Source of the DNA: Alphaproteobacteria bacterium
GTDB lineage: Bacteria; Pseudomonadota; Alphaproteobacteria; UBA828
NCBI GenBank assembly: GCA_963422645.2
Contig: CAXXVO010000002.1
Coordinates: 1-64,000, forward strand
Direction of reading: 5' to 3'
DNA: 64,000 bases
The notes below the pieces were generated by a model, which was not told the DNA's origin, made no database searches, and saw only the letters and a program-made list of their open reading frames with translations. This document shows, piece by piece, positions 34,739 through 52,317 of this stretch. The translations under genes were made by a program, and so were the position numbers. The stretch's first letter is position 1. Every line of letters begins with the position of its first letter.

Positions 34739-36010
34739 CAGGGCGAATTTATTGTCCGCCCGTCGAGCAGGGTGAGCTGAAGTCGGGTCTGGCCATTCCG
34801 TTCTCGATGTGGCAGTGTGCCGCTCATGGCGACGCTGCCGGTCCCAGGTTCGTTCATTGATCTGCGCGCGGTCACGGTGCGCCCGACCTGGGGGGGCGCA
34901 GGAGCACCGGCGCTGGGACCGGTTGGTGGAGCAGCACCACTACCTGCGGTTCCACGGCGTCATCGGCAAGGGCCTGCGCCATGTCGCGGTGCATGGCGAG
35001 ACTTGGCTCGCACTGATCGGCTGGCAGCCCGGCGCGTTCAAGCTGGCCGCGCGCGATCGCTGGATCGGGTGGTCGGCGGAGCAGCAGTTCAAGCGCCTTC
35101 ATCTGATCGCCAACAACTCGCGCTTCGTCATCCTGACTGCGCACCGGGTTCCGAACCTGGCCTCGCGGGTGCTGGGGCTGAGCCTGCGGCGGCTGTCTGC
35201 GGATATGCAGGCGGTGCATGGATATCCGGTCTTTCTGGCGGAGACGTTCGTGGATGTCTCGCGATTTGCCGGCACCTGCTACCGCGCGGCCAACTGGCGC
35301 TCGCTGGGGCTGACGCGCGGCTTCGCCCGCGAGCCCGGCGGGGCGGCGCGCTGGCGCCACCACGGCCAGCCCAAGGAGGTCTTCGTGTTCGAACTGACCG
35401 ACGGCGCCGACTGTGCGCTGAGCCGGCCCGAGATGCCGGCACACTGGAACGCCGAGCAACACACCGAGCCGATGGCCGCGCCCCGGCTGCGCAGTCTGTT
35501 CGAGTGTCTGGGCGAGGTGCCCGAGTACCGCCACGCCCGAGGCAAGCGCTATCCGCTCAACACCATTCTGACGCTTGCCGTCGCCGCCCGGCTTGCCGGA
35601 TACCGGGGGGTGAACGCATTCGCCCAGTTCGCCGCCCTGCTCTCCCAGGAGCAGCTCGAGGCGGTGGGCGCCTTCTGGAGCCCTTCCAAACAGCGCTACA
35701 CCCCGCCCGCGATCACCACCTTCCACAACGTCCTTGCCGCGCTTCCGCCAGAGACCCTGGACGACGCCATCGGCCAGTGGACCGGACAGCATGGCAGCGC
35801 GCACGCGCCCGTCGCCATGGACGGAAAGGACCTGCGCGGCGCCTCGAAACAGACCGAGGACGGGCGCAGGATGATGGTCGCGGCGGTGGAGCATGACAGC
35901 GGCGTGGTCCTCGGCCAGGTCGAGGTCGACAGCAAGAGCAACGAAATCCCGGCCGTGCGCGAACTCTCCGGCAGTCTCGACCTCACCGGCCGCATCGTCA
36001 CCATGGATGG
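34739..36010 (+). mobile_element. ISAs1-family element with a DUF4338-fused transposase; frameshift in a G-run at ~34890; 3'-truncated
   Basis: CAGGG end; DUF4338 'HHYL...ARDRWIGW...ANNSRF...ETFVD...GTCYRAANW'; ISAs1 'AMDGKDLRG', 'KSNEIPA'. Confidence 0.8.
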
Positions 36011-36155
36011 ATGGATGCGGACGTGGCTGGAACCCTTGGCGCAAGCGAACCTGGGCGTCCCTCGGCGTCCACGCCGCGTGGCAGAGCGTCCGGTATCAAC
36101 GCAGGGGATCAGCGGACAACACCAGGGCCATCGGAGCAGAGGCGGTGTGATGACC

Positions 36156-37725
36156 GTAACCATCCGCCGAAGACCGCGGGGTATTTGGGGCTGAGTTTGA
36201 CGGCGGGCAGTGCCGGTTGAAGCGCAGGGGTCTCGGCCTATGCAGCCTGATCGTGCCGCTGGCTGTCTTGCCAGTTCCAGGGAAGGAGTTCTTCGAGCCG
36301 GGTCTGCGGCGTCTCCGCGATCCGGCCGAGCACGTCGGCGAGCCAGGCCTGCGGATCGACGTCGTTAGCTTGGCGGTGCCGATGAGGGTGTAGATCGCCG
36401 CCGCGCGCAGGCCGCCGCGGTCGGAGCCGCAGAACAGCCACGACTTTCGGCCCAAAGCGATACCCCTGAGCGCCCTCTCGGCGGCGTTGTTCGTCAGGCA
36501 GATCCGGCCGTCGTCGAGGAAGCGGGCGAACAGCTCCCAGCGCCGGAGCATGTAATCCATCGCCTTGGCCACGGGGGAATGGCGCGACAGCTTCCTGCGC
36601 TCGGCCTGCATCCAGTTCTTGAGATCGGCCAGCACCGGCGCGCTGAGCTCCTTGCGTACGGCAAGGCGATGTTCGGCGGAGTCGCCGACGATCCCGCGCT
36701 CGATGTCGAACAGCACGTCGATCCGCTTCACCGCCTCCAGCGCCGGCGGCGAGATCGGCGGCGCGGTCTTGCCCCGTCGCTTGCTCGTCGCGATGTCGGC
36801 GAGCTCGTAGAACTTCCTCCGTGAATGCGCCCAGCAAGCCCCGCCGATGATGGGCCCAGGCGATCTCCCGGCCACATAGAGGGCGTTGTAGCCGGCGTAG
36901 ATGTCGGCCTGGAGGATGCCGGCGAACGTCTTCAGGTGTTCGACCGGGTGATCGCCGGAACGGTCCCGCGAGTAGCGGAACAGCGCCGCCGGCGGGTCCG
37001 GGCCGCCGAACGGCCTGTCGTCGCGGACATAGACCCACGCCCGGCCGGTGGCGCACTTGCCCTTGGCCAGCACCGGCACCGGGGTGTCGTCGCCGTGCAC
37101 GCGCGCCGCCGCCATGACATGGGCCTCGATCAGATCATGCAGCGGCTTCAGCGCCACCGTGCAGGCGCCGACCTGGTCGGCCAGGGTCGACAGGCTGAGA
37201 TCGACGCCTTCGCGCGCGTAGCGGTCGCGTTGCCGGTTCAACGGCTGGTGCTGGCCATACTTCTCGAACAGGATCATCGCCAGCAGGTTGGGCCCCGCCC
37301 AGCCACGCGGCGTCGCATGAAACGGCGCCGGCGGCTGGCTGATCTTCTCGCAACGCCGGCAGGTGAACTTCTCGCGCACCGTCTGGATCACCTTCCACTG
37401 GCGCGGGACCGCCTCCAGCGTCTCGGTCACGTCCTCGCCGATCTTCGACAGCTTGTCCGAGCCGCAGCACGTGCAGGTCACAGGCCCCGGCACTACCACC
37501 CGCTCGCGCGGAAGATGCGCAGGCAAGGGCTTGCGGACCGGCTTGCGGCGGCTGAACCCCTTGACCCCGGTGGTCTCCGCCGCCGCCTGCTCGGCCGCAA
37601 GCTCGTCCTCGGTCGCGCTTGCCTCGAGCTCGTCGAGCTGGAGCTCCAGCTGGTCGAGAAGCCGCTGCTTGCGCTCCGAGCGCCAGCCATACATCTCGCG
37701 CCGCAGCTTCTCGATGGTAAGCTTG
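36156..37725 (-). mobile_element. IS66 tnpC (5'-truncated, frameshift at ~36370) and right end
   Basis: 'YGWRSER', 'EKYGQHQPLNRQ', HGDDT, CWAHSRR; end GTAACCATCCGCCG. Confidence 0.88.
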
Positions 37726-38289
37726 AGGAACGCGTGTTGATGACGGTCTAAACCCGCGTTTATTCGCTTTTTTGGGGGCGCGTGATTTTGGTGGCGGCGT
37801 GGTTGACGGGTTTATGTTCCCGATGAATTGACCGCTTCTGTTGTTGCTGGACCTGTGGGGAAGTGGTCAGGCGCGGAGCGGCTGTCCACTTGTCCACAGG
37901 CCTCTTGCCGTCGCCCGCTTTTCCCAGCTTCGCCCAACTTCGTACACCTGACATCGAGATCGCCGGGGGTAGACTCGGACCGCTGAGAACGATGCGGCGC
38001 CGGCCCCGTTTGCTTGCCAGCAAGTGCCGACGCCGCACCCCGCGAGCCATGCCGTGCACGGCTCAGATGCACAGTATCGTGCGGGATTTAGCGGGGGTCG
38101 AGCCCGTTATCATCGACCGCCGCGATGCAGAACCTCGGCCGCCTGTTCCACTGTCTGAACCGCTCCGGCTTTCCCGGAGGCTCCATCTTCAGACTTCCTG
38201 ACCTCGTGATGCTGGCTGTTCTGGGCAGCGTGCCGGGAACTCCTTGAATTCTGATACATTTCGGTTGTTTCAGGCGGTTTTTCGCTGAT

Positions 38290-40269
38290 CTCGGGCCATC
38301 CGTCGGCGCTCTATGACGAGGTGCTGGCGGGATGGCGCCGGCTGGCGCTGCAGGTCACGACCCAGGGTCTGGTGCGAACCGAGGTCGTCTGGTTCAACTA
38401 CGCCCCCGACCGGATGCATTGGGCCAGCCACGCAGGCCGGAACTTCACCGACCGCCAGCGCATCAAGCGCAAGGCAGCCAACTGGGGCCGGCGCTACCAG
38501 GCCTTGCCGCCGGGCGAACGCCTCGCCGTGCTCGCCGCCATGATGGCCGTCGAGGCCGAAGACACGTGACGGTGTCGCACTGGCACGAAGACCTCGCCGC
38601 CCGTAACGAGGCCTTCTGCTGCCTGAAGGAGCTTCTCGAGCCATCATCCCTCGCAACCACTGTCGTCGTTGCCGTCCGGGAATGGGGGCAGGGGCTGCTG
38701 CGATCAGCCACCGCGCTCGCCCGGGAAAATGCCGCACTCGAGCAGGAGAACGCGGCCCTGCGCGAGCGCATCGCCGAACTCGAGCGCAGCGCGGCCCTCA
38801 ACAGCACCACAAGCAGCAAGCCCCCCGCCAGCGACGGGCTCAAGAAGAAAAGCGGAGCCCAGAGGCGCACCCAAAGCCAGCGCGGAAAGTCCGGCGGGCC
38901 CAGTGGCGGCCAGCCCGGCCACAAGGGAACCACCCTCGCGCGGAGCGACAGCCCGGACCGTGTCGTCGATCACCACCCCTCCACCTGTTCCGGCTGTGGC
39001 GTCGAGCTCTCGGACGCCGACCGGCAAGGCGCGCCCGCCTGTCGGCAGGTCTTCGACGTACCCGAGCCGCAGCCTCTCGAGGTCACCGAACACCGCGCCC
39101 ATCGCTGCCTCTGCGGCGCATGCGGCACGCTGACACGAGCCGCCTTCCCGCCGGGCGTCACCGCCCCGGTCCAGTACGGCCCTCGCATCACCGCTTGGGT
39201 GAGTTACCTGCTGTACGCCCAGTTCGTGCCCGAGAAGCGTCTGGCCGAACTCATGAGCGACATCTTCGCGGTGTCCATCTCCACTGCCACGATCGCCGCC
39301 ATGGGCCGGCGCACAGCGCAGCGCTTCGAGGGCTTCCTCGACCATGTCGCCGATCTGATCCGCACGCAGGCGCCGGTCAAGCACCTCGACGAGACCGGCC
39401 TGCGTATCGCCGCCCGTACCCGCTGGCTCCATGTGCTGTGCACCCCGTTGCTCACCGTCCTGCGCATCGGCGAGGGACGCGGCGATGTCGAAAAGAACCT
39501 GAAAGGCATCCTCGTCCACGACGACTTCGCCCCCTACTTCACCATCAAGGGCGTCCGCCACGGCGCCTGCAACGCACATCACCTGCGCGAACTCCAGGCC
39601 CTGATCGACATCGAGAAGGAGGAATGGGCGGCGAGCATGCACCGCCTGCTTCAGCGCGCGCGCAGGGCCGCCCGCTTCGCCCGTGAGAAAGACCGTCAAG
39701 TCCCCGCCTCCCTGGTGGCCCGCATCTCAAGGGCATGGGACCGTATCCTCGAAGAAGCCATCGCCTTCCATGAGGCCCAACCGCCGCTCCAGATCGCAAA
39801 GCGAGGGCGAAAGAAACGCCGCATCGGCCACAACCTCGCGCGCCGCCTTCAAAAGCATAAGGAGGGCTGCCTGCGCTTCCTCACCGACCTGCGCACGCCG
39901 TTCACGAATAACGAGGCGGAGCGTGACATCCGTATGAACAAAGTGCATGAGAAGATCTCAGGCGGCTTCCGCTCCCTGCAAGGCGCCTGCAACTTCGCCG
40001 GAATGCGCAGCGTCATCGTCACCGCTCGAAAGCAAGGCTGGAACATCCTGCAAATCCTGGCGCACCCGGAACCGATGCAGCTGATCCCTATACTGCGCTC
40101 CTGAACTTCTCCGGCTCATCCTGAGTATCGCTGTCCTCTCATCTTGTTCGCGACGCGGCGTTCATCATCCTCTCGCGCTCAAGAGAGTAGGCACCCCCGC
40201 GGCGTGGGGGCGTTGACGCAAAAGGAACTGGCTTGTTCCATAAGAGAGAGGGGGTACCTGGGCAGTTAC
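38290..40269 (+). mobile_element. Second, diverged MTase-carrying IS66 element: MTase 3' remnant (to 38569) and transposase 38566-40104
   Basis: MTase C-terminus 'RTEVVWFNY...RNFTDRQRIKRKAANW' as in the 10937-11605 gene; same GTGA coupling; TIR ACCTGGGCAGTTAC at 40269. Confidence 0.88.
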
Positions 40270-41049
40270 AGGTAACCCAGCTGCGCCGCGCTGATCGACA
40301 CCGCGCCGCCCGACGTCGCCGGCCACTGGAACCGGCCGCGCTCAAGCCGCTTGGCGTAGAGCGACGTCCCGACCCCGTCACTCCAAAGAATCTTGACCAG
40401 GTCGCCTCTGCGTCCCCGAAAAATATAGAGATCGCCCGCATGCGGGTCGTGACCGAGATCCTCCTGGACCTGAAGCGCAAGCGTGTTCATGCCGCGCCGC
40501 ATGTCCGTCACCCCACTCGCCAGCCAGACACGAACCCCGCCCGGAACCGGGATCATCGCCGTGCCAGGACCGAAAGGACCCGCCCCAGCGCCGTGCCGTC
40601 CACCTCCCGGTCGACAATCACCCGTGCACCGTCCGCCAGCGCGATCTCCATCCGCCCCGCCGCCGGCACGGCGCCGGAACCGGCATCGGGCGGTGACGGC
40701 AGCAGGCGATCCGGCTCGACAACCACCGGCACGAAACCACCCCGCTCGCGAAACCGCCGCCGCCAGGTGAATACCAGGTTGGCGTTCACGTCGTTGCCCC
40801 GGGCCACCACCGAGACCGATACCCCGGGCCGGTAGCTCTCCGCGACGATCCGGCGCTTCTCCGCCTCGCTCCACCGACGCCGGGAGGTCGACGGCCTCGT
40901 CGCCAACCGCGGCGACTTCTCATCTACATCAGACATCTGCGATCGTGTCCATTATGGCCTTGGTGGACACCTCCAGGGTGTCCACTCCCAATCGGACAGC
41001 TTCACTCGATCACACTAGACCCGGTAGGCGGCCCACGCCGGAGGCTTAC
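40270..41049 (-). mobile_element. IS66 left end with tnpA (40553-40936) and truncated tnpB (40270-40556)
   Basis: tnpA 'RRRWSEAEKRRIVAES'; tnpB 'TDMRRG...KILWSDG...KRLERG'; end GTAAGCCTCCGGCG at 41049. Confidence 0.88.
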
Positions 41050-41236
41050 GGAGATCGTCCAAGGACGCCACGTGCGCCAGCAACCGTGAGAACACGCCAT
41101 CCGCCAGATCGACCATCGGTTGCTACCGACGCCGTACCTTCTCCGAGATGGACCGGTTGCACTGATATTGGCTTGTCAGTCACCGGCATGGCGACTTCAC
41201 ATGGTGACCTTCCATCCTGAGCAGGGTGGCTGATCG

Positions 41237-43750
41237 TTAGAGGTCCGGGAGGTAGTAGGCGACGAGCAATCTCGTGAGGATTTCGCCACGGAGCGCCAAA
41301 CGATCAACATCCTCTTTTGGCATGGCTGCGAAGTCGGTTGGGTAGTGCCGGACCTCGTCGCGTGTTGGGAGGTCCGCTGGAATCCAGGGCAAGGCATTGT
41401 CCTTCTGTCCGAGATAGGCCAACGCGAAGCCCGAGAGTTTTCCGTCGTCAGCAAAGTAGTGCAGGCGTTTTCGAGTAGCGTCCTGGACCTTGCGAAAGAC
41501 TGTGAGAAAGGACCGGTACATCCTAGTAGGCCAGCGGGTCGGGTAGCTGTCGGCGTCGAATAGGCCCGCGCCAGCGTCGCAACAAATGATGTACTCGGGG
41601 TCGAAAACATTCGTGCTGATAGAAGCTATCCGCCCAGGCTCCATCGGGTTAACGCCCAGATTCTCGAATACTCCACCATCGGTGAGCAGAACACGAGTCG
41701 GCGTACTGGTTTTCCCGTTCTTGACAAAGCGGTACTTGCGTTCAAGTGCAGGCAGAAAGACCGGATAGGCTGCCGAAGCGGCCACGGCATCGGCGACCAG
41801 AGCGTCTTCGGGGGCAATCGTTCCAAAACGCCAACAGCCGCTATGCCGACTTCCGAACCGGAATGCGGATCCGGTTCGCAGCTCGGTGGCATTGATAACC
41901 GTATCGAGCGATTCCCGGGAGACTTCGCGCACAATGGTATCGCCGAACATGGATTGAGCGATGACTTCCTTGAACGCCTCCGTGCGGCTGAACGTGCGCT
42001 CCACCGGCTGACTCACGCGATCAGGGTTGTTCGATGGGATCGCGACGCGAGCCAGGCGATGAAGTATGCGGGCGATGAAGCACAGACACGCGACAAAATG
42101 AACTCTGACAACCTTGCGGATGGAGCCCTGTAGAAACACCTGGCGAAAGATGTCGCGGTGAAGTCCTTTGTCCAGAAGCTGTAGTGCGCGCGCTTCAAAC
42201 TCCGGGAACGGATCGTCTGAATAGGCATACATTGCGGAGATCACAGAACCGCCAGACACACTCGAAATCACCTGGAGGCGATCAAGCAAATCCAGGTCGT
42301 GCAGAGCACGCAGACATCCCAGGTGAAACGCGATGGCGCGCGATCCCCCGCCGGAGAGCGCGAGCCCCACATTTCTCGGCTTCTGGAGGCGTGGCCCAAG
42401 CTGCGTCGTTGCTGCTGTGTTTCGTTCAATTCGAATGAAATTCTTGTCGGACAGTGTTGTCCTGAATGCATGCGCGCCAAGAATTGGATCGTCGGGATTC
42501 CCGGAGAGGATCAGGATCAAGCAGGTTCTTCGGGCGGAGACCGGGTCGGCTAGGAGCTGTGCGACGGCATCAATGTCGATATCGCTTGGGTGCGGCGAGG
42601 ACGAGGGGTGGGTATGCCAACTGCCGACGCAATCGACCGATCCGCGGAACCGGTCGCGCTTACTTTCGGCAGCCTCTATCATCCCTTTGACTCCGCAGGT
42701 GAAGTGCTCCTCGCTTGCGTCGCTGTCTGGCGGCGGTCCCTCCACCTCCGTGACCCAAAGCACGCCCGCGGCTTCGTTCAACTCACCAAATACCAGCCCG
42801 CCGGTCTCAATTCCTGGTCCCACCGTTCGCGCAGATCGTCTTGCCCATCCGCGCATTTCTCGCGCAGCAGTCGCAGATACCCGGACCGAATAGCCGCGCC
42901 CCTCGTCCCTGAGAGTATGTTCCGGGGGCCACGAAAACTCATGGACAGGTCCGGATTCTTCGCAAGTCCAGCCAAAGCCCGTGTGGCAGTCATCGGTCCC
43001 TTGGATCGCACGAGCGATAGAATTCAGCATGCGCGCTGACAGTCCTGCGAGATCGGCGTTGGAACCGATGAACGTCGGCTCCGAACAGCCAGGTTCTGGT
43101 TGAAATTCCTCGCCTGGCGCCGATCGCGGCCAGAAAGCCTGAAGCGGTCTCGCGAGCTGCGCACTTCGACACGCTTCGAGTTTGAGGCACCGAGTCAGGT
43201 CGAGCGTGCCGCCGCTATGGTTCCCTCGCGAAAGAGTAGCAATGCCGTTGGCGGCCTGACTGTCGATGGCGATGGATGCAATTGGAGGTCGCGTGTCCGG
43301 GGCGTCGCGTAGCACATGCTCCAGGGCCGTCCGAACCGCCATTGAGGCCGTGCAATCGAGCAGAAGGTCGACCATCGGAAGTGGATCGGCGCCTGTTACT
43401 CGTTGAATAAGGTCGCCGGTCGAAGCGACAGCTTCCAGATCGGGATCGATCCTTTTCAAGCGATCGGCCAGCGCGTGAGCCTTGAACCTTCCGATATCGG
43501 CGTCTTCAAAGCCTTGTCGTACTAGGAGACCGGGGGCGACCGTCTTGTTGTCTACAAGCTCTACCGTTCTGGCACCGGCCCGTACGACGCTTTCCGCCAC
43601 GTGGGTCCCTACAGCGCCGCATCCCCAAATCGCCACACGCTTACCGGAAAACCAAGCCATGGGGGATGCTTGATCCCGCCTCCTGGTGACCTCAGGACGC
43701 ATTTCCCTGACTCTGCACCAACCCACATCGGCCAAGACCGACCATTCCAC
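41237..43750 (-). CDS. ThiF/E1-like + JAB + patatin-like phospholipase fusion (probably the C-terminal part of an E2-E1-JAB-patatin protein)
   Basis: GCGAVG, 'LVRQ', 'LDCTA', 'EPGCSEPTF' (Cap2-type catalytic Cys); ETGG...WHTHP..PSDID; patatin LSGGGSRA, SVSGGS, DGG. Confidence 0.88.
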   Translation of the reverse strand: MEWSVLADVGWCRVREMRPEVTRRRDQASPMAWFSGKRVAIWGCGAVGTHVAESVVRAGARTVELVDNKTVAPGLLVRQGFEDADIGRFKAHALADRLKRIDPDLEAVASTGDLIQRVTGADPLPMVDLLLDCTASMAVRTALEHVLRDAPDTRPPIASIAIDSQAANGIATLSRGNHSGGTLDLTRCLKLEACRSAQLARPLQAFWPRSAPGEEFQPEPGCSEPTFIGSNADLAGLSARMLNSIARAIQGTDDCHTGFGWTCEESGPVHEFSWPPEHTLRDEGRGYSVRVSATAAREMRGWARRSARTVGPGIETGGLVFGELNEAAGVLWVTEVEGPPPDSDASEEHFTCGVKGMIEAAESKRDRFRGSVDCVGSWHTHPSSSPHPSDIDIDAVAQLLADPVSARRTCLILILSGNPDDPILGAHAFRTTLSDKNFIRIERNTAATTQLGPRLQKPRNVGLALSGGGSRAIAFHLGCLRALHDLDLLDRLQVISSVSGGSVISAMYAYSDDPFPEFEARALQLLDKGLHRDIFRQVFLQGSIRKVVRVHFVACLCFIARILHRLARVAIPSNNPDRVSQPVERTFSRTEAFKEVIAQSMFGDTIVREVSRESLDTVINATELRTGSAFRFGSRHSGCWRFGTIAPEDALVADAVAASAAYPVFLPALERKYRFVKNGKTSTPTRVLLTDGGVFENLGVNPMEPGRIASISTNVFDPEYIICCDAGAGLFDADSYPTRWPTRMYRSFLTVFRKVQDATRKRLHYFADDGKLSGFALAYLGQKDNALPWIPADLPTRDEVRHYPTDFAAMPKEDVDRLALRGEILTRLLVAYYLPDL

Positions 43751-43758
43751 GACCGCAA

Positions 43759-44655
43759 CTATCGCTGCACAGCCCGTTGTGCTGGATCATCGGCTGACGA
43801 CGAGACATTCAGCTCTCGCAGCTTGTCTGCGTCGGCAGTAGCGATTTCCCATACTGCGAGATGCTGAAGGGCTCGACCGCCCGGGTCTATTCGGCGCATC
43901 GGGGTACCGAGCACTACGGCCAGCGGGGTCACGGCGCCGCTGTTTCGCGCGTACAGCCCGAGTTGGCGGATGAACGGACCGTAGTCGAGACCGTGAGATT
44001 CCAGCTCTTTCAATAGGGAGTGGACAGTCTTTGGGTATTCGAAAGGCAGGTTCCTATGGAGCAAGATTGCGGGAGCGAAGTGGGCCGGCAGTTCATGACC
44101 ATGCTCCTGCCAGCCGACGATTTCGGTGCGATGGTGTCGTTCACGTAGTTCCGCCAACCCGAACCAAGGCGAGTCGTCAACCGGAGGAGTATCCGCCCTC
44201 GGCACAAATAAGCGGTCAACGATTGGATAGGCGACCGGCGGATGGAGTGGCGCGTCGTCGGGATCGAGGTTGTTGACTGCTGCGTCACGTATCCAGGAGT
44301 CTAACCGCTTGACAAAGCCGTACATCCCGTTTTCCGGGCGCCAGTCGGCGGAACTCCCGTAGAGGCAGAGTTGCCTCCGCCACTGGACGTGATTGAAGCC
44401 GGAGAAGCGAACATGCGGAGTCACGACCAGTGGATGCTCGAACGGGAAGGTAGGAGGTACGAGCACGCAGAAAGCCTCACGTGCTCGCACCGGTAGCCCA
44501 TCCTCGCCCCGCTCCAGGCCGTCGAATCGAATGCTTATCTCGAACAGGCGATAGGCGTCGACAAGCTGAGTGGCTTCGTAGAGCTGTACGGTGCCGTCCG
44601 AGGCATCCGCAATCTCCCTAAGCTGTTCCCAGGCGAGTTCGAAGGCATCGGCCAT
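43759..44655 (-). CDS. E2/UBC-like domain protein (N-terminal half of a Cap2-like fusion; likely frameshift at ~43770)
   Basis: 'VPPTFPFEHP...HVQWRRQLCLY....WRP....GFVKRLDSW' UBC-fold pattern with Cys. Confidence 0.75.
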   Translation of the reverse strand: MADAFELAWEQLREIADASDGTVQLYEATQLVDAYRLFEISIRFDGLERGEDGLPVRAREAFCVLVPPTFPFEHPLVVTPHVRFSGFNHVQWRRQLCLYGSSADWRPENGMYGFVKRLDSWIRDAAVNNLDPDDAPLHPPVAYPIVDRLFVPRADTPPVDDSPWFGLAELRERHHRTEIVGWQEHGHELPAHFAPAILLHRNLPFEYPKTVHSLLKELESHGLDYGPFIRQLGLYARNSGAVTPLAVVLGTPMRRIDPGGRALQHLAVWEIATADADKLRELNVSSSADDPAQRAVQR

Positions 44656-45779
44656 CAGGCCCGGCCGTACGTGTGAGCACTTTCGGGAGCTTCGTTTGAG
44701 CCCTTCGCTGCATCGGCGGCTTCCGAAGCGGTCATGGCGGCGGTCGCCACGCCGGCGAGCACGATCTTTCCATCCTTAAGTTCAGCCATGATCGGCTCGT
44801 CCTGATCCATTGTGCAAAGAAAGGACTCGGTGGTCGACTCGTACTGCGTCTTGGCCTTTGCATGGGGAGGGTTGTCACCGGCCTTGTTGGAGGACGGTAC
44901 CGTATTGGAGCTGGATATGACCCGATTGGGTTTCAAAGACGCCTTCTCCATTTCCTCAACGATGTGCTTCTTGAGCTTCTCCTCGTCGTCCCCTTCCTCC
45001 TTCCAGTACATCGCGGCCTTTGAGCAGTGGTGCGGTGCCAGCAGCACGTTCCATGCGAGATCGTCGTCTTCGTTGACGCCAAATATTCTCTTGATGATCG
45101 GGTAGGAAAGATCACCGAGGAGCAGCGCGCGCAGTATCTTGTCTCCGTCGTAAAGCGTGACCTGCATGCCGAGGCTCGTGTCGTTCCGCTCGCCGGCGTC
45201 ATCGTCCTTGAACGGGGCATGGACAAATGCCCGGAACTTGTCAGACACGTCCTTTTCGTCAATCGTGGTCACTTCGTTACCCGGTATCGTCAACCGATCT
45301 TCCGGAAAATCCTTGTAATCGTCCTCTTCCAGCAACTCCGAGTAGCCGAAAATACGCACGCGGTCGCCGGCGCCTGGATCGCCCTTGGCCTCGATCGTCT
45401 TCTTGACGCGCCGTTCCGCCTCCTTCTTGAAATCCTTCGCGTCGTCGCAGAGATCCTTATTATACTCGGCAAAGATTCTGGGCGTGAACCACAACTCGCC
45501 AATATCTACCTTGTCGAGGAGGTCCGAGAAACCCCGGCAATGGTCCTGATCAGGGTGAGTCAGAGCAAACACGGCCAGGTACGGTCGTCCATTGACCTTG
45601 GGCAACCGTTCTGAGAGCTCATCGACAACGGCCCAGCTGGCATCGTCGTCGTCGTCGGACTTTTGCAGATGATTGAGATCAACCTGCAGATACGTCTTCG
45701 AGTCGACAACAATGGATGTGCTGTCGCCATTTGCCACCGGCCAGAAGACCAGTCCGCGGTCAGGAAGTTCGAAGGCCAT
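44655..45779 (-). CDS. Metallo-beta-lactamase-fold hydrolase (ComEC/Rec2-like) with a C-terminal tail ending HTYGRA
   Basis: 'VANGDS', THPDQDH, 'NDTS', LLGD, APHHCS; low-complexity Ala-rich tail. Confidence 0.88.
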   Translation of the reverse strand: MAFELPDRGLVFWPVANGDSTSIVVDSKTYLQVDLNHLQKSDDDDDASWAVVDELSERLPKVNGRPYLAVFALTHPDQDHCRGFSDLLDKVDIGELWFTPRIFAEYNKDLCDDAKDFKKEAERRVKKTIEAKGDPGAGDRVRIFGYSELLEEDDYKDFPEDRLTIPGNEVTTIDEKDVSDKFRAFVHAPFKDDDAGERNDTSLGMQVTLYDGDKILRALLLGDLSYPIIKRIFGVNEDDDLAWNVLLAPHHCSKAAMYWKEEGDDEEKLKKHIVEEMEKASLKPNRVISSSNTVPSSNKAGDNPPHAKAKTQYESTTESFLCTMDQDEPIMAELKDGKIVLAGVATAAMTASEAADAAKGSNEAPESAHTYGRA

Positions 45780-45874
45780 GTTTCATGCTCCGTTTGGTTT
45801 TGGTTTTCGTGTTTGGCAAGGTTGATGCAGTGCTGACTTGAACGCGGTCTAATGGTTTCGGGAAGCAAAGATCA

Positions 45875-47755
45875 TCATCGTACACACCGTGTGACAAACC
45901 CATTGCCGCCGCGTGCTGTAAGCAACGACACGCCATCTTCGATGTTTGTTTGAAAGACTTGTCGAGCTACTTTGCCGTACAGCTTGACTGCCTTTGCGTC
46001 TGGATGCCCGTATTGATTGTCGACCCCGGCGCTGATCAAGACCGTGTCCGGGGACACAAGTAGCGCCATTTTGGGATGAGCCGCATTCTTTGAGCCGTGA
46101 TGCGGGGCACTCAAGACGTCGGAAGAAAGACTATTTCCGAACAATCTGGTTAACCGCTTATGCACATGGCTCCGGTTCGATCAACATGCTGTAGGTAAGG
46201 GGTTTTGCATTGGTGGCGATGCGGAAGAGCGAGCGGAAAGCAGCGTGGCGGGTTTTGCGGCGGTTGAAGCGAAAGGCGAACTCATCGAGATAGGCCTGCA
46301 GATGCTTGCGGCGCAGCCCGTGGTAGACGCCTCGCGCCCATCCTTTGAGGTTGGAGAAGACTTGGTGGATCCACGGCAGGACGAGGTGAGCGGCGGTCTT
46401 CCCGACGACATGGACATTGTGGCGATCGGCGGGGACCGCAGCGTAGCCGGACCAGCCGTCGGTTTTCGCGATGGCGTCGGGATCGGCGGCGGTTTCGACG
46501 AAGTGTCCGAGGTCGGCGGCGCCGTAGGAGGAGATTTCGGCCAGCCGCAGGCGGCCCGGGATGGTTCCATCCCCCAGTTCGATGGCGCCGACGATGAGCA
46601 TCTTGCCGTCGTGGCTGCGTCCTTGCCCTCCGGTGGGAGGATCGTCTTTGGTCCGGAATGGAAGGCTGGCCTCGTCGATTTCCACCAGGCCCGACAACGG
46701 GTTGCGCTCGGGGTCGACCATGCTGGCGCGCAGCTTGTGGGCGAGCAGCCAAGCGCTGCGGTAAGAGCCGATACCGAGCTGTTTCTGGAGCTGCAGGGCA
46801 GAGATGCCGTTGGAGTGGGTCGCCATCAGGTAGGCGGCCCAGAACCAGACGGTGAGCGGCAGCTTGCTGGCGTGCAGGATCGTCCCGGCCGTCACCGAGG
46901 TCTGCCGGCGGCAGCCGGCGCACTCGAAGGTGTGTGCTTTTCTGCGCAGCGCCCATCCCTTTTCATGGCCGCACGCGGGACAGACGAAGCCGTCCGGCCA
47001 GCGCATTTCGATCAGCCAGGCGGCGCAGGCGTCATCGTCCGGGAACATGTGCTGGAAGGCGAGGAGGCTGTCGGCGACCTGTTTCATGTGGTGGCTCCGT
47101 CGGCAGGAACGTATAGGCAACATTCTACCCGTTCTCCCGCCCTAACCTCAACCTCAACATCTGGTGGCAAACTCTCGCGACCGGAGCCATGTGCATAAGC
47201 GGTTCTGGTTATTGTGTCCCAGCGGTCGTTTTCCGTATCTCCCGTTATCAGATAAGGAAACCCATTCCCGCCAATTCCCGACAACTTGAGGACTATGCTA
47301 CAGTTGTTGGAATTATCCATGTCTTCACTATGCGGAGAAAACAGCTCATAGGAAAAATACTTGGAAAGCCCATTCAGTTTTCGCGAATGGAGGTCCAACC
47401 GTACCGAGAGCTTCTTTAGGGGCTTTCCTGTATTCCTTCGCCGGCGCTCATGCTTGTTGATAACCTTGAACACGTCGGTGGCATTATCGGTATCCTTGTA
47501 ATACTTCGGATACATGATCCAATTGGGTTTGTACTCTCCCAGAATGTTGTCAACCCCATACGGGTCAGCATGGTCGTTATCGAACCCTGTCAATACGAGG
47601 CCCGCTAAGTCCTGATTGCGGAGAAACACCTGCAATTGCTTCTCGATTGCTTTAGCGTGTTCGTCGGGCCAGCGCGAATCGACGATCACGGCTTCTCCGC
47701 GGTGGCGGATGGCGATCAACTCACCCTGTCCTACGTATACCGTCAGCGTCTGCAT
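45875..47755 (-). pseudogene. MBL-fold (ComEC/Rec2-like) hydrolase interrupted by IS1595
   Basis: 'VGQG', TGFDNDH, NNCS, ITGD, APHHGS, YGHP; removing the IS and one TSD restores in-frame ...WDTITR-LFGN... Confidence 0.88.
46153..47203 (-). mobile_element. IS1595-family element (tnp ~46158-47087)
   Basis: TIR ACCGCTTATGCACATGGCTCCGG; 8-bp TSD TCTGGTTA; CPAC..CAGC, VEIDE, TDGW, 'YLDEFAFRFNRR'. Confidence 0.95.
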
Positions 47756-47757
47756 TG

Positions 47758-48696
47758 CTATTGCCCACTCCGTTCGCTGATGGCCCAATACAGCGATTGG
47801 TTCAATTCTCTCTCGAACGCACTCACCGCCTGTGCCGCAGACCCGAACTGCCGTCCGCTGAAGTCCTCGTAGACCCCTGCGCACACGCTTGGCAGCTTCT
47901 TGGCCAGAACTTGGTAATAGGAAGCCTCTCCGTCCTCCGATGTGTCTATTTCGGGGACCGTGACATCTATCGATGACCCGTCAACCAGTTCCAGCTCTCC
48001 CTTCCAATACAGAGTGCCGGCGCGTTTCGACCAGTACGGCTGAAGCGACGGGAAGAGGTCTGGAATGGTCGCACTATCCCTGGTCCGGACTTCCTTGCTG
48101 TGCCCCGCCTCTGTCTTGCTCAGCTCCGGCCTCGATCCAAGGGGCCAAACGGGTGCGTCTCTCGTAAGGGTGACTTTCGCGGGTTCGACCTCGTAAACGG
48201 CATCGTCACCCCGTAACAGGATGTAGTGCCTGACGCTGTAGCGTGACGCCGCCTCTCCACCAGCCAGCCGGGAAACGACGAGTAGTGCATAAAAGAAATC
48301 AAGGTTGTGCTTTTCGTGATTCACTATCCTTCTGTAGGTTGCAATGTCGCCGCCGCTGAGGTTTGGAAATCCATTCACATGATGTGTGTGCCAATTGCCA
48401 AGATGCTCAACTTCAGGGCGCGCGCTCTCGATCTGGCGAAATATCTCCGCTTGGTAGTCGCCGTCCTGGAAGAAACTTGTGGTGGACCTCCGCGCATTCG
48501 GTCCAGCCTCGATGACACCGGTAACCGTGACCTCCAATGAGCCATCGGCGCAGCGCCGAAACCGTCCTACGATCCGCCCACCCGTCTCGTCATGGTCATA
48601 ACGATCGCAGTCATCGAAGATCGACTCCAGTACCAGCGAAGGGATCGATAGCGTAGCGTTGGCATCCTTTAGGTCGCTATTCATTGGAACCTCCAC
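47758..48696 (-). CDS. JAB/MPN (JAMM) metallo-isopeptidase with a C-terminal extra domain
   Basis: ETGG...GNWHTHH....LSGGD JAMM motif; ~110-aa C-terminal extension. Confidence 0.88.
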   Translation of the reverse strand: MEVPMNSDLKDANATLSIPSLVLESIFDDCDRYDHDETGGRIVGRFRRCADGSLEVTVTGVIEAGPNARRSTTSFFQDGDYQAEIFRQIESARPEVEHLGNWHTHHVNGFPNLSGGDIATYRRIVNHEKHNLDFFYALLVVSRLAGGEAASRYSVRHYILLRGDDAVYEVEPAKVTLTRDAPVWPLGSRPELSKTEAGHSKEVRTRDSATIPDLFPSLQPYWSKRAGTLYWKGELELVDGSSIDVTVPEIDTSEDGEASYYQVLAKKLPSVCAGVYEDFSGRQFGSAAQAVSAFERELNQSLYWAISERSGQ

Positions 48697-49519
48697 AAAC
48701 TAGGCAACCCTCCTGCCGATGCAGGGTGATTCTTTGCAGCTCGAAGCTCTTGCTGAATGGATGTATCGGTCGATTTCCCCAAACCACGTAATTTTCCGGG
48801 ATAGCGGGAAGAAACGCTGGCCGTTGTGGGGCCAGCCGAGCCAAAGCGTCCATCACATAGCGCACGTGAAAAAGCGTGATGAACCCGATGTCTACCGCGA
48901 GGCCTGGGGAATCCTTTATCTCTTGAGGATCCAATCCGTACATTTGCTCCCGGTCTTCTTCGGAAGCGAGATCAATCTCCCTGACACCGTCTCGGAATTT
49001 AGTTCGTTCGAGAACACCCTCCAGACAAGCAAGACACCCACTCTCGCCCGGACGATAACCAAACACCTCTCCGCCAATCCCGCGGGTGAACACTTTTCCG
49101 ACAACGAATGGTGTTTCATTTCGAACACACAATTCGTTCATTTGAAATCGTGTCGGATCATTGTCGGTGGCAAGTACGACGATGTGGGAGCGTTGGACCT
49201 CACTCTCCAAGCCATGCCACTGCATCAGATCTTCTTCGACTTTCAGTACAGAAATATCTGGGTTTCGATCCTTGAGTACGTCTTCCAGTGCATCAACCTT
49301 CTTGCGACCGACAAATCGAAGTCCGCAAACATGCCGAATCACATTTTCGGATTTCATCACGTCTTTATCGATCAACGTGAAGTGTTTGACGCCTGACATG
49401 ACAAGTTGGAGCGCAACCTGGCCCCCGCCAGACCCGCAACCTGCGATGAGTACACGGGATTCGGCGAAGGCCTCGACGTCAAACAGACCTTCAATTCTCG
49501 CAAATAGGTTTTCGTGCAA
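48677..49519 (-). CDS. ThiF/MoeB/E1-like adenylyltransferase
   Basis: GCGSGG, 'IDKD...ENVIRH', 'KKVDAL', 'ATDN', Zn motifs CLAC and CLVC; TTG start directly after the upstream stop. Confidence 0.9.
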   Translation of the reverse strand: MHENLFARIEGLFDVEAFAESRVLIAGCGSGGGQVALQLVMSGVKHFTLIDKDVMKSENVIRHVCGLRFVGRKKVDALEDVLKDRNPDISVLKVEEDLMQWHGLESEVQRSHIVVLATDNDPTRFQMNELCVRNETPFVVGKVFTRGIGGEVFGYRPGESGCLACLEGVLERTKFRDGVREIDLASEEDREQMYGLDPQEIKDSPGLAVDIGFITLFHVRYVMDALARLAPQRPAFLPAIPENYVVWGNRPIHPFSKSFELQRITLHRQEGCLVCGGSNE

Positions 49520-49520
49520 T

Positions 49521-50048
49521 TCAGGTGCCCTCCCGCTCGGGCCAATTGCCGGTAGTGGACCACAATGCATAGCCGCTTAGCCATCGCCGACACAGTTTCA
49601 AGGTATGAACCACATCGTGTCGCCCGGGATTCCAGGTTTCCATGGCGCCAAAAATGCAAAGAGAGCCGTCAAGCCAGAGATGAGGAGATGATGGGTCTAT
49701 CGGATCGGCTGTAACCACCGGGGACTTGTTCGGATACCCGTGGGGTAGCGTGATGCATAAACGGATATCCTTCTCTTGGCCTGGTTCAGTAAGAATTAAT
49801 TGTATTTCCCTATTCTCCGTTATAGATACGCGAAATGGTTCACTTTCGGCAGCAAGACCATCAAGTTCCTGCGATATCCTGTTCGGGGAGATATCAGGCA
49901 GGAAGACGGAAATGGGCACCAGACATGCCTTTTGTTGTCCGCTTCTCTCTACAACATAGGCACGACCGCGTACCGCGACGTCATCCAGAATTTCTCCGGG
50001 TCGGCTGCGGAGATCCATCATGGATAGAGGTTGGAAGTCGATGTGCAT
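49521..50048 (-). CDS. Phd/YefM-like DNA-binding domain fused to an E2/UBC-like domain
   Basis: N-terminal 'SMMDLRSRPGEILDDV...YVVERSGQQKACLVPI'; C-terminal 'ITLPHGYPNKSP...PHLWLDGSLCIF....WNP'. Confidence 0.75.
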   Translation of the reverse strand: MHIDFQPLSMMDLRSRPGEILDDVAVRGRAYVVERSGQQKACLVPISVFLPDISPNRISQELDGLAAESEPFRVSITENREIQLILTEPGQEKDIRLCITLPHGYPNKSPVVTADPIDPSSPHLWLDGSLCIFGAMETWNPGRHDVVHTLKLCRRWLSGYALWSTTGNWPEREGT

Positions 50049-50054
50049 GGCAGA

Positions 50055-50429
50055 TCAATGGGCAATGCCCGCACCGGGCCAACGACGCTGAACGCAATAG
50101 ACTTCGTATTTGGCTAGCCATTTGGCCGCTCGCGCAATGACGAAGCGGAGGTCATGACGTCCAGGGTTCCAAAAATTCGGATGCAAGTAGCAAAGTTGAT
50201 TATCGGTGTACCGATGAGGGGAGGGTTGCAGCGCAGGTGTCCGGACGAAAACCTGGGGCATCGCATTCGGGTACGACTGCGGGAACGTTACTGCCAGTGT
50301 GTAGTAGCGGAGCGACGTCTGTAGCGCGACCAAAGCCATCAATCCGCCTGCGTTGGTGGGGTGCGCCTCGACGTAGTCGAAGTGCTGCTGCGCGGTCGCA
50401 ATATCCCGTTGGATTCTTGTCAGATTCAC
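50055..50429 (-). CDS. E2/UBC-like conjugating enzyme
   Basis: 'VTFPQSYPNAMPQV...PHRYTDNQLCYL....WNP...VIARAAKWL'; GTG start overlaps the stop of the 64-aa ORF. Confidence 0.8.
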   Translation of the reverse strand: MNLTRIQRDIATAQQHFDYVEAHPTNAGGLMALVALQTSLRYYTLAVTFPQSYPNAMPQVFVRTPALQPSPHRYTDNQLCYLHPNFWNPGRHDLRFVIARAAKWLAKYEVYCVQRRWPGAGIAH

Positions 50430-50620
50430 CGCGAGTCTCCACGGGCGCTGTATTCGCCTCCTAGGTCTTCCCTCATCGTGATCGGCTTGCGATAGCCGCT
50501 TTCCGCAGCAGCGCTTCCGCCGAGCTCCCGCACCTCGCCGTTGGGCAGGATTTCGATCGGGGAGTCCTCCTCCTCGTCCAAGATCGCCTCGAGTTCGTGG
50601 ATTGTCGGTTTTCTCGCCAT
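50426..50620 (-). CDS. 64-aa acidic peptide with an LGG motif; first gene of the operon
   Basis: AGGTG RBS, ATG, GTGA coupling to E2; MARKPTIHELEAILDEEEDSPIEILPNGEV...KPITMREDLGGEYSARGDSR. Confidence 0.7.
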   Translation of the reverse strand: MARKPTIHELEAILDEEEDSPIEILPNGEVRELGGSAAAESGYRKPITMREDLGGEYSARGDSR

Positions 50621-50644
50621 TTCGCGTCACCTATGAGGATCGTG

Positions 50645-50682
50645 CGGTTATGATAGTTGTACAGTTCATAACCGGCTGTCAA
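50645..50682 (-). promoter_or_regulatory. Putative promoter/operator of the ubiquitin-like operon
   Basis: TTGACA (-35, 50677-50682); perfect IR CGGTTATGA-N12-TCATAACCG (50645-50674) enclosing TGTACA; -10 box is not canonical. Confidence 0.6.
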
Positions 50683-50859
50683 GGGAAGAAGCCGGCTCTA
50701 GCGGATGGTGTCCTGGGCATCGCGCTACGCGGCACCAAGCCGTGGACATGACGGCGAGCCATGGTCAGGCGTCGTCGAGGGCAAGGCGTTGGAGGAGGGA
50801 GGTGCAGCCCTCCCGCACGATGGCGGGGGCCCGCGCCCGTTTCTGAGGATGGAGGAAGA

Positions 50860-51000
50860 ATCGAGGCGTCGCGGCGAGGCCGGCAAAGGTCTACAGGTAC
50901 TCAACCGGATGATCGCCGGACCGATACCGGGAGTAGCGAAACCATGCCTTCGGCAGGTGCGGAGCTTCGAACGGCCCGTCGCCGCGGACATAGACCCGGG
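50860..51000 (-). mobile_element. Degenerate IS66 tnpC remnant
   Basis: 'VYVRGDGPF...FRYSRYRSGDHPVEYL' matches the tnpC segment at ~36930-37040. Confidence 0.65.
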
Positions 51001-51130
51001 ACCGTACGGTGCTCCCGATCGGGCTGGACCGCTTCGGAATTCCGGATCGTGATTGCGAAGGCGACCGGCATGAAGTACCTCGGTGGCCCTTCGCCGGCCG
51101 GCGGGCCACGAGAGCTTGGTGTGCTCGTCC

Positions 51131-51204
51131 GCAATGTTCGCTGCGCAGCGAATATTGCCAGGTTCTCGAATATCCGCTAGAAGGCATATATTTGCTGCGC
51201 AGCA
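51131..51204. promoter_or_regulatory. Two palindromes with a GCTGCGCAGC core upstream of the AbiEi-like gene
   Basis: GCAATGTTCGCTGCGCAGCGAATATTGC (28 bp, one mismatched pair) and TGCTGCGCAGCA (51193-51204). Confidence 0.65.
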
Positions 51205-51219
51205 GAATAGGCTTGAACG

Positions 51220-52317
51220 GTGATGCTTGACTCGGACGTAATGGAAGGACAGCTGGTTGACGGGTTCCTGGAAGCCCTGCGGGAGCTCCCCGATGCGCAG
51301 GCGGAGGTCAGTGAGGCCGAACAGCCGGGCGGCCGCGATCGAGGACATGACGTCCAGGTTGACCTCCGGGTGGGTGGGAAGGCGGCCACCCTGCTGATTG
51401 AGATGAAGAAGGACGTATATCCCCGTGACGTGCGGCAGGTACTTTGGCAGCTCCGCGGCTCCGCACGGAGAAGGCCGCACCCGGAAGAAAAACGGGAAGC
51501 GGTGTTCTTCCTGATCGCCCGATCGATTTCACCTGGAGCCAAGGAGCTGTTGAGGAACGAGCGGGTCGGCTACTACGACAGCGGCGGCAGCCTGTTTCTG
51601 CCCGCCGGCAACATCTACGTGTATGTGGACAAGCCGCCCCCGAAAAGCCTGTCGCGGTCCATCCGTTCCGTGTTTTCGGGCCGTCGTGCGCAAGTGCTGC
51701 ACGCGGTCCTGCTGCGACATCGCGAGTGGTTCGGGGTGAATGACATCGCCAACCAAGCCCGGGTATCGCCCGCGACCGCCTCGCAGGTTCTGATGGAAAT
51801 GGAGAAGTTCGAATGGGTGGTGTCGCGTGGACAGGGGCCAGGAAAAGAACGCCATCTGCAAGAGCCAGGCGCCTTGCTGGATGCATGGGTGAACCAGCAG
51901 GCGGTGATGCGGCCGCTGTCCATGCGGCGTTACTTCGTGCCGTCGGCGGGCGCGGAAGGGCTGGTGGAGAAGTTCGCCGAGGTCTGCGCAGAGAGCAAGG
52001 CCGAATACGCGATCACTCACGAGGCGGCAGGGCAACGGTACGCGCCATTTCTGTCAACTGTCTCCCAGGTGCGTTGCCGGCTGCTGGAGGGCCCGGCAGC
52101 AGATCGGGGTCTTAGCGCAATTGATGCTCGATTCGTGGACCAAGGCGCGAACCTTGCGGTCATCGAGGTCAAGTCGCCGAGCGAGTTGCTGTTTCGCGAA
52201 TTCGTGAACGGGATCTGGCTGGCAAGTGCTGTGCAGGTCTACCTCGACCTGATGCGCAGCGAGGGCCGCGCTAGGGAAATGGCGGAGCACCTGCGCCACG
52301 AAAGGATCGGCTTCTGA
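51220..52317 (+). CDS. AbiEi-like (type IV TA antitoxin) transcriptional regulator
   Basis: Central wHTH 'VNDIANQARVSPATASQVL', 'PGALLDAW', C-terminal 'VQVYLDL...GRAREMAEHL'. Confidence 0.72.
   Translation: MMLDSDVMEGQLVDGFLEALRELPDAQAEVSEAEQPGGRDRGHDVQVDLRVGGKAATLLIEMKKDVYPRDVRQVLWQLRGSARRRPHPEEKREAVFFLIARSISPGAKELLRNERVGYYDSGGSLFLPAGNIYVYVDKPPPKSLSRSIRSVFSGRRAQVLHAVLLRHREWFGVNDIANQARVSPATASQVLMEMEKFEWVVSRGQGPGKERHLQEPGALLDAWVNQQAVMRPLSMRRYFVPSAGAEGLVEKFAEVCAESKAEYAITHEAAGQRYAPFLSTVSQVRCRLLEGPAADRGLSAIDARFVDQGANLAVIEVKSPSELLFREFVNGIWLASAVQVYLDLMRSEGRAREMAEHLRHERIGF

Follow-up and report, generated by a model that had tools for sequence, protein, structure and literature searches.

Does a phospholipase at the end of a ubiquitin-like conjugation enzyme belong to one genome by accident, or to a family in which the lipase is a working part? 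The question is raised by the 64,000-nucleotide stretch analysed here (the window; positions 1–64,000 of contig CAXXVO010000002.1, from an alphaproteobacterium of the lineage UBA828), in which a gene for a metallo-β-lactamase (MBL)-fold protein is followed on the minus strand by an E2 open reading frame (ORF) and then by a second ORF encoding E1, JAB and patatin domains (Table 1). An earlier note on this DNA had read these genes as an MBL plus E2-E1-JAB operon of the 6A-MBL type with a patatin phospholipase at the C-terminus, and both the NCBIfam equivalog matches and Pfam agree with it, as do the ORF list and Pfam with the coordinates and domains it gave. Taken as a whole, our analysis makes it probable that the locus is a 6A-MBL member of a patatin-bearing branch with a lipase output that would be gated by conjugation, a working proposed by analogy with type II of the cyclic oligonucleotide-based antiphage signalling system (CBASS), and that this copy is split by a 2-bp insertion.

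The MBL gene has no match in Pfam. On the NCBIfam equivalog NF058524 ('6A-MBL system MBL-fold protein') its product scores 290.2 bits over residues 12–327, with a cutoff of 220, and its stop overlaps the start of the E2 ORF by one base (44655). Pfam places Prok-E2_A on the E2 ORF (1.2e-18), and ThiF (3.8e-18, residues 37–145), Prok-JAB (5.2e-08, residues 303–409) and Patatin (9.9e-20, residues 463–701) on the 837-aa ORF, in which the natural patatin C-terminus ...YYLPDL is retained at 41240. The two ORFs are consecutive parts of one gene, because they match adjoining parts of the PADLOC E1-E2 model PDLC00857 (positions 16–258 and 318–558, respectively) and of NCBIfam NF058523, '6A-MBL cap2_3' (positions 4–254 with 80.9 bits and 271–653 with 253.2 bits). 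The intact homolog P0001, to whose residues 1–296 the E2 ORF is 86% identical and to which the 837-aa ORF is 94–95% identical, scores 345.5 bits on NF058523 (cutoff 320). In the accessible text of Iyer 2006, row 6a of Table 1 describes an E2-E1-JAB triple-module protein beside an MBL. Since the window MBL passes NF058524, P0001 passes NF058523 and the gene order agrees, the window pair is, as judged by the curated models and that description, a 6A-MBL member.

The window has kept all the residues that 57 four-domain homologs, ranging down to 30% identity, share without exception, and the statement of the earlier note that the E1, JAMM and patatin motifs look intact thus holds. These residues include H89 and C97 of the E2 and, in the numbering of the 837-aa ORF, the GxGxxG motif, D132 and C222 of the E1, E315, H379, H381, S389 and D392 of the JAMM site, and GGGxR (467–471), S499 and D691 of the patatin. 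In P0001 numbering, the patatin residues invariant in the 57 proteins are G768–G770, R772, S800 (in the turn S-V-S-G-G) and D992–G994. We take GGGxR to be the oxyanion loop, the GxSxG-type turn to carry the nucleophile serine and DGG to hold the catalytic aspartate. All three features that define PF01734 patatins, the oxyanion loop, the nucleophile serine turn and the catalytic aspartate, are found in the window sequence.

The fusion is not confined to this genome. A protein search with the 837-aa ORF, in which 8000 candidates were scored, returned 849 proteins at E ≤ 0.001, and 106 of the best 120 carry PF14457, PF00899, PF14464 and PF01734 together at about 1136–1138 aa; another 10 are shorter and lack the E2 family, and 4 lack a JAB call. 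The top match is P0001, with 1138 aa and 95% identity. The earlier note had put the rejoined protein at about 1140 aa and had proposed a search for full-length homologs, and these proteins match it in both length and architecture. In a library clustered at 50% identity, P0001 obtains 558 matches at E ≤ 1e-30, and domain hidden Markov models (HMMs), which were built from the family itself, sort the best 150 of these representatives into 43 E2-E1-JAB-patatin proteins, 86 E2-E1-JAB proteins and 21 partial ones. The architecture is therefore not the unusual variant that the earlier note supposed, since 43 of the best 150 representatives are clusters with all four domains. A local accidental fusion is excluded by the 106 four-domain proteins, together with the representatives and the genome loci described below.

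Among 30 fetched genome loci, 28 are of the patatin type (identity 43–91%; at least eight named phyla). These loci, L001–L028, come from Acidobacteriota, Pseudomonadota, Binatota, Spirochaetota, Gemmatimonadota, Actinomycetota, Chloroflexota and Myxococcota. Across them the four-domain protein is 55–91% identical, far closer than the organisms themselves, which indicates that the operon moves horizontally. On this sequence evidence, the family is large, old and horizontally spread. The MBL gene lies directly upstream on the same strand in 27 of the 30 loci, and apart from a second cassette in three of them (see below) no other conserved neighbour was found in the 30. Of 18 other genomes of the genus, 3 carry the family, as does 1 of a sample of 300 others of the class; it is sparse, as defence genes are, and non-detection in the searched genomes is not taken as absence. 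Sequencing runs labelled sponge, coral or marine metagenome gave word shares of 0.05–0.14, from which no habitat is inferred.

Of the 28 patatin-type loci, 22 have the two genes intact and five are damaged; for the remaining one the contig is too short to judge. Loss of the patatin-bearing 6A-MBL system seems, from these sequences, to be frequent. The damaged copies differ in kind: L015 and L020 are cut at the N-terminus and lack the MBL, the MBL of L016 is interrupted by about 1.8 kb, L024 has a one-base frame change and L028 a ~1.6-kb insertion in the big gene. In G011:C1:2128745-2136940 the pieces lie 4.7 kb apart, with a TAG.

Fusion is only one of the two ways in which the patatin accompanies the enzyme. 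In a genome of the same genus, G012, consecutive genes encode the MBL (387 aa), E2-E1-JAB (757 aa) and a separate patatin (409 aa), and stand-alone patatins of this kind are numerous (364–410 aa, whole domain covered, about 50% identity). Metagenome contigs were scanned with an alignment of the stand-alone patatins and the flanks were scored with the family HMMs. This gave 80 loci, 26 of them with too little upstream DNA, and hence 54 assessable ones; all were chosen by their likeness to stand-alone patatins, which shapes the following counts of fused and separate forms. In 39 of the 54 the patatin is a frame by itself that immediately follows one bearing E1/JAB; 33 of these also have the MBL upstream, and two (L060 and L110) show only a distant E1 match. 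The patatin is fused in the other 15. No assessable locus (0/54) lacks an upstream E1/JAB. The earlier note had named patatins that are always encoded separately as grounds for dropping its proposal, and the 15 fused metagenome loci and 28 of 30 genome loci speak otherwise. Because the patatin stands alone as a third gene, directly after E2-E1-JAB, no less often than it is fused, the real unit is, as far as gene order can tell, the MBL, the Cap2/3-like enzyme and the patatin, fused or not.

Cultured bacteria carry the three-gene form. On Rhodococcus and Phaeobacter plasmids (RefSeq/GenBank) it is an operon with 4-nt overlaps, annotated as 'hypothetical protein', 'ThiF family adenylyltransferase' and 'patatin-like phospholipase family protein'. 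On the plasmid of Phaeobacter sp. G2 (L120, 283–1170), genes for a divergent helix-turn-helix (HTH) protein and an ImmA/IrrE metallopeptidase precede the operon, and an AbiEi antitoxin gene adjoins it. A regulator pair of the HTH and ImmA/IrrE kind is reported upstream of CBASS operons in the accessible part of 10.1101/2022.04.27.489752. In L047, L071 and L076, E2-E1-JAB is followed by a separate patatin, and the 2.2–3.7 kb upstream hold no MBL HMM match on that strand; these loci may contain an MBL that has diverged, or rely on a different partner. P0218 (985 aa) has E2-E1-JAB followed by 244 C-terminal residues that match neither the patatin HMM nor Pfam, and its C-terminus may be a different fused module.

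A quick FastTree phylogeny of the E2-E1-JAB part, with 130 rows after exclusion of the 20 of 150 representatives without an E2, E1 or JAB match, interleaves fused and unfused proteins, with 29 label changes, of which well-supported branches force at least 18, as compared with a mean of 36.8 for shuffled labels. A single origin of the fused form is ruled out by these changes. The tree indicates that the fusion state is labile; gain or loss of the lipase is not implied, because rows scored as not fused may be fragments or have a separate patatin.

The other partner, the MBL protein, has two conserved parts. Its metal site consists of the motif HxDxDH (H75, D77, D79 and H80) together with H187, D223, H250 and H251, all invariant in the alignment. 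Its tail consists of a helix (351–358) followed by ...HTYG372-RA. Of the patatin-type MBL ORFs in the genome loci, 23 of 23 end in (T/D)YG plus 0–3 residues, four of them exactly at the G, and of the 44 MBL tails from metagenomes 42 have [VI]GFG followed by 0–3 terminal residues; a conserved helix precedes the invariant glycine. An invariant glycine followed by 0–3 residues resembles the end of ubiquitin-like precursors, and this likeness suggests that the tail may be processed as they are. Since the metal site is also invariant, the MBL would retain an enzymatic role of its own. Its model (pLDDT 77, pTM 0.83; predicted local confidence and predicted template-modelling score) best matches the MBL domain of ComEC in the PDB (9ic4, E 2.4e-10, TMt 0.74).

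The predicted structures relate the large protein to CBASS components. The full-length P0001 model (pLDDT 83.2, pTM 0.77) matches, in Foldseek, Cap2 (7to3_A, E 7e-21), Cap3 (9ild_A, TMt 0.75), the patatin PlpD (5fqu_B, TMt 0.72) and the CBASS effector CapE (9ion_C, TMt 0.67), as well as the Atg7 entries 3vh1, 4gsk and 4gsl, which span Atg7-Atg10 and Atg7-Atg3 complexes. A PDB profile search likewise finds Cap2 (7tsq, E 6e-13). Furthermore, a complex model of the window MBL with P0001 residues 1–575 reaches an ipSAE interface score of 0.71, as compared with 0.00 for the best control; 58 of 80 solved complexes attain this mark, as do 2 of 110 mismatched pairs. The runs share at least 85% of contacts and the pLDDT of the partner is at least 86. 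In this model, MBL residues 344–359 and 307–320 contact E2 residues 11–24, 41–61 and 109–120, and the MBL tail helix (344–359) is thereby predicted to sit on the E2 domain. The solved Cap2-CdnD complex is alike, and the score may partly reflect this likeness.

Comparison with known systems shows a branch of 6A-MBL that shares features with type II CBASS. As in 6A-MBL, the MBL gene stands directly upstream of E2-E1-JAB, with gene order and strand alike; unlike in 6A-MBL as modelled, about 385 extra C-terminal residues, the patatin, extend beyond the 665-position cap2_3 model, the word 'phospholipase' does not occur in the accessible text of Iyer 2006, and the window gene is split by the insertion. 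With type II CBASS the family shares a Cap2-type E2-E1, a Cap3-type JAB, a CapE-like patatin fold in the P0001 model, a partner enzyme with a conserved C-terminal glycine tail (here the MBL) and, in one plasmid operon, HTH and ImmA/IrrE regulator-like genes upstream. It differs in that a ComEC-type MBL enzyme stands in place of the cyclase, that a single chain comprises E2-E1, JAB and, in many cases, the lipase, and that no second messenger is evident. The earlier note had remarked on the lack of a cyclase, and indeed Pfam scans of the neighbouring window ORFs found no CD-NTase cyclase, nor is one a conserved neighbour in the 30 loci, where the MBL alone has that place. According to the accessible text of PMC11601596, Bil and Bub operons, found in the setting of defence islands, also use chemistry of the E1, E2 and JAB type; they conjugate a separate beta-grasp ubiquitin-like protein, whereas no conserved gene for such a protein lies beside the pair here. 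The conjugated end appears, by analogy, to be the MBL enzyme's own tail.

These likenesses suggest a mechanism, whose steps follow by analogy with type II CBASS. The JAB peptidase would trim the 0–3 residues beyond the invariant C-terminal glycine of the MBL; the E1 would adenylate this glycine and then load it on a cysteine (C523 in P0001 numbering), from which the E2 cysteine C97 would hand it to a target amine. The JAB may also undo the conjugation and so reset the system. As output of the system, the Ser-Asp lipase of the patatin would damage the membrane, under the control of the conjugation state rather than of a cyclic-nucleotide signal, since no cyclase accompanies it. The earlier note had likewise supposed that conjugation or JAB processing may control the lipase directly.

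A different role for the patatin is conceivable, in which it is not a killer and instead handles lipid or targets the membrane as part of the conjugation chemistry itself. For example, an Atg7/Atg3-like E2-E1 might couple the MBL glycine to the amine of a membrane lipid, in the manner of Atg8-PE, while the patatin would bind or remodel this lipid or remove the conjugate. The E2-E1 fold is indeed Atg7-like in the structure matches, and Atg7 kinship is also stated in the accessible text of PMC11601596, which calls the target of Cap2-type conjugation unknown; moreover, in every assessable locus the patatin is linked to the conjugation enzyme and never to a signal-making enzyme. We nevertheless consider this role improbable: defence-linked patatins, as far as described, are effectors (CapV in the accessible literature), the matched CapE and PlpD are lipases, and the invariant Ser-Asp dyad and oxyanion loop are those that a hydrolase would have.

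How does the window copy fit the family? The E2 frame ends at the TAG at 43761–43759, out of frame relative to the homologs, and the E1 frame, open from 43786 after the TGA at 43789–43787, lies one base away from it. The earlier note had calculated that one added base near 43770 would join the two frames; the arithmetic is right, and the actual lesion is of another kind, namely two extra bases, TG TG at 43768–43771, where the in-frame homologs L011, L020 and L001 have a single TG. The break falls in the linker that joins the E2-linker domain to the first E1 helix, and in the P0001 model the pLDDT at this place (residues 286–288) drops below 50, just before the helix 291–307.

One rival reading is an error of assembly or sequencing in a gene that is truly intact, and the earlier note had advised a check of the reads at 43760–43790. 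Single-indel errors are frequent in some long-read assemblies, and all other features of the gene are intact. Logan contigs of the runs X15, X17 (word depth 50.6), X18 and X19 cross the break with no other letters and no gaps and carry the extra TG; X15, X17 and X18 belong to one study, and X19 to a second study with a different organism label. This comparison used contigs in place of the raw reads that had been called for. Since the contigs of four runs from two studies agree across the break, the split is real DNA. The site, furthermore, is a doubled TG and not a homopolymer, and an error is very unlikely.

A real lesion leaves two readings of the gene. Measured against L011 and L020, the window has a ratio of nonsynonymous to synonymous substitution rates (dN/dS) of 0.14–0.23, as compared with 0.13–0.17 among the intact homologs, and no further stops or frameshifts occur in the 3.4 kb. 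Because the window ratio resembles that of the intact homologs, the lesion would be either recent or tolerated; the window copy is either newly inactivated or functional as two polypeptides. A long-standing pseudogene is unsupported by dN/dS. A programmed –1 frameshift was also rejected, as no X XXY YYZ slippery site was seen on reading the 28-base overlap (43759–43786), a reading that did not extend to a structure search, and three homologs are in frame without the extra TG. No intact paralog was found when the 5.9-Mb, 23-contig assembly was searched with P0001.

The split would be harmless if the E2 with its linker domain were made from the first ORF and the E1-JAB-patatin part by re-initiation at GTG 43750, eight bases past the TAG, which would give a three-polypeptide system whose arrangement resembles that of Bil systems, with separate E1 and E2. 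The low-confidence linker in which the break sits, the 3.4 kb free of other stops and frameshifts, the dN/dS that is not elevated, the same allele in contigs from several samples and the labile domain boundaries of a family in which the patatin is fused or separate are all in keeping with this possibility. We regard it as possible and, on balance, doubtful, because an intact natural split of E2 from E1 at the same point occurs in none of the 28 patatin-type genome loci, the proteins with E1, JAB and patatin only (8 of the 150 representatives) may be fragments or similar lesions, GTG 43750 has no clear ribosome-binding site, and Cap2 is a single E2-E1 chain in the best-matching solved structures.

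Several points weigh against the reading given at the outset. The gene is split in this window, so that the single-polypeptide E2-E1-JAB feature, present in 22 of the 28 patatin-type genome loci, is lacking in the window copy, and each piece alone falls below the NF058523 cutoff of 320. None of the database rows holding the stretch is recorded as RNA, and no clear Shine-Dalgarno sequence was seen before GTG 43750 after the stop. The break was compared in contigs, and some of the runs may be the source of this assembly. The confident contacts of the complex model do not put the terminal glycine itself into the E1 pocket. With its invariant metal site, the MBL and not the patatin could be the main effector. 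Many 6A-MBL relatives have no patatin within reach, as at the three-domain loci L029 and L030, where the fetched flanks contain no separate patatin. Finally, the literature covered yielded no description of a patatin partner of 6A-MBL; the primary 6A-MBL paper, an older comparative study and the supplements lie outside this coverage.

Within that coverage, a patatin joined to E2-E1-JAB or to 6A-MBL is not mentioned in the accessible text of PMC1779556, PMC11601596, PMC11601603, 10.1101/2023.09.26.559546, 10.1101/2025.09.30.679545, PMC13276650, PMC13069673 or PMC13373217, and no model in PADLOC 2.0 or NCBIfam release 20 recognises the patatin partner. The earlier note had asked whether the architecture is already catalogued: the proteins are in the databases under generic names, and no library model or literature description was found. 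The patatin-bearing 6A-MBL branch is widespread and apparently undescribed.

The surroundings of the locus are rich in mobile elements (Table 1). Directly upstream lies a second, unfused ubiquitin-like cassette (45875–51480, minus strand), which has no NCBIfam name and whose ComEC-like MBL gene is cut by an insertion sequence (IS) of the IS1595 family. The same cassette, with its MBL uninterrupted, has the same place beside the 6A-MBL-patatin pair in L001, L003 and L011 (3 of 30 loci). A nest of IS66-family elements (36096–40936) lies just downstream of the patatin end. The guanine-cytosine content is 0.51–0.63 over both cassettes (0.67 in the IS1595 transposase, 46500–46999), as compared with 0.62–0.70 in the flank 36000–41000. 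In a scan of 40900–46200, promoter and terminator matches were no more numerous than in shuffled sequences. Elements of the IS66 and IS1595 kinds thus abound in the island where the split gene of the window lies.

Table 1. Features of the patatin-bearing 6A-MBL locus and its surroundings in the window
Feature	Position	Strand	Basis or remark
IS66 transposase	36096–37694	minus	
IS66 transposase	38332–40104	plus	
IS66 Orf1/Orf2-like genes	40553–40936 and 40266–40874	minus	
E1-JAB-patatin ORF, second piece of the split cap2_3-patatin gene	41237–43750	minus	837 aa from first start GTG 43750; frame open from 43786
Patatin domain	~42364 to 41240	minus	Pfam
JAB/JAMM domain	~42844–42524	minus	Pfam
E1 (ThiF) domain	~43642–43316	minus	Pfam
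Duplicated TG (break)	43768–43771	minus	DNA alignment with three in-frame homologs
E2 ORF, first piece of the split cap2_3-patatin gene	43759–44655	minus	298 aa; E2 (UBC-like) and linker domain
MBL-fold gene ('6A-MBL enzyme')	44655–45779	minus	374 aa; ORF list and NCBIfam NF058524
Second-cassette ComEC-like MBL, two pieces	47084–47884 and 45875–46165	minus	
IS1595-family transposase	46158–47123		cuts the second-cassette MBL
Second-cassette JAB	47758–48696	minus	
Second-cassette E1	48677–49570	minus	
Two small proteins of the second cassette	50055–50630 and 49521–50048	minus	weak RWD/UBC-like matches

6A-MBL is counted, in the accessible literature, among the known jumbo-phage defence systems, and phage defence is reported there only for other 6A-MBL members. 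The accessible text of PMC11601596 cites it as the 'MBL pathway', in which a fused E2-E1 conjugates its signalling enzyme. The system is validated and mechanistically open, as the action of the MBL enzyme and the target of Cap2-type conjugation are both called unknown in the accessible sources. Our comparison ties a whole branch of the family to a patatin lipase, which some lineages carry as a fusion and others as a gene of its own that overlaps its neighbour, and which gives 6A-MBL a plausible output module; the fusion is a 'Rosetta-stone' hint that the conjugation machine and the effector are physically coupled. Cultured, plasmid-borne examples in Rhodococcus, Phaeobacter, Rhizobium and Streptomyces allow tests of the glycine tail, the cysteines, the JAMM site and the lipase serine. 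For the window itself the meaning is more modest, that of a recently split copy in an IS-rich island. A bolder possibility, which we hold tentatively and think unlikely, is that in a large branch of 6A-MBL systems conjugation itself, without a nucleotide messenger, is the phospholipase switch, with the MBL glycine placed by the Atg7-like E2-E1 on the patatin or on a membrane lipid amine (as in Atg8-PE) and the JAB resetting it. If true, immunity would here do without a cyclase, and ubiquitin-like chemistry would lead straight to the destruction of membranes.

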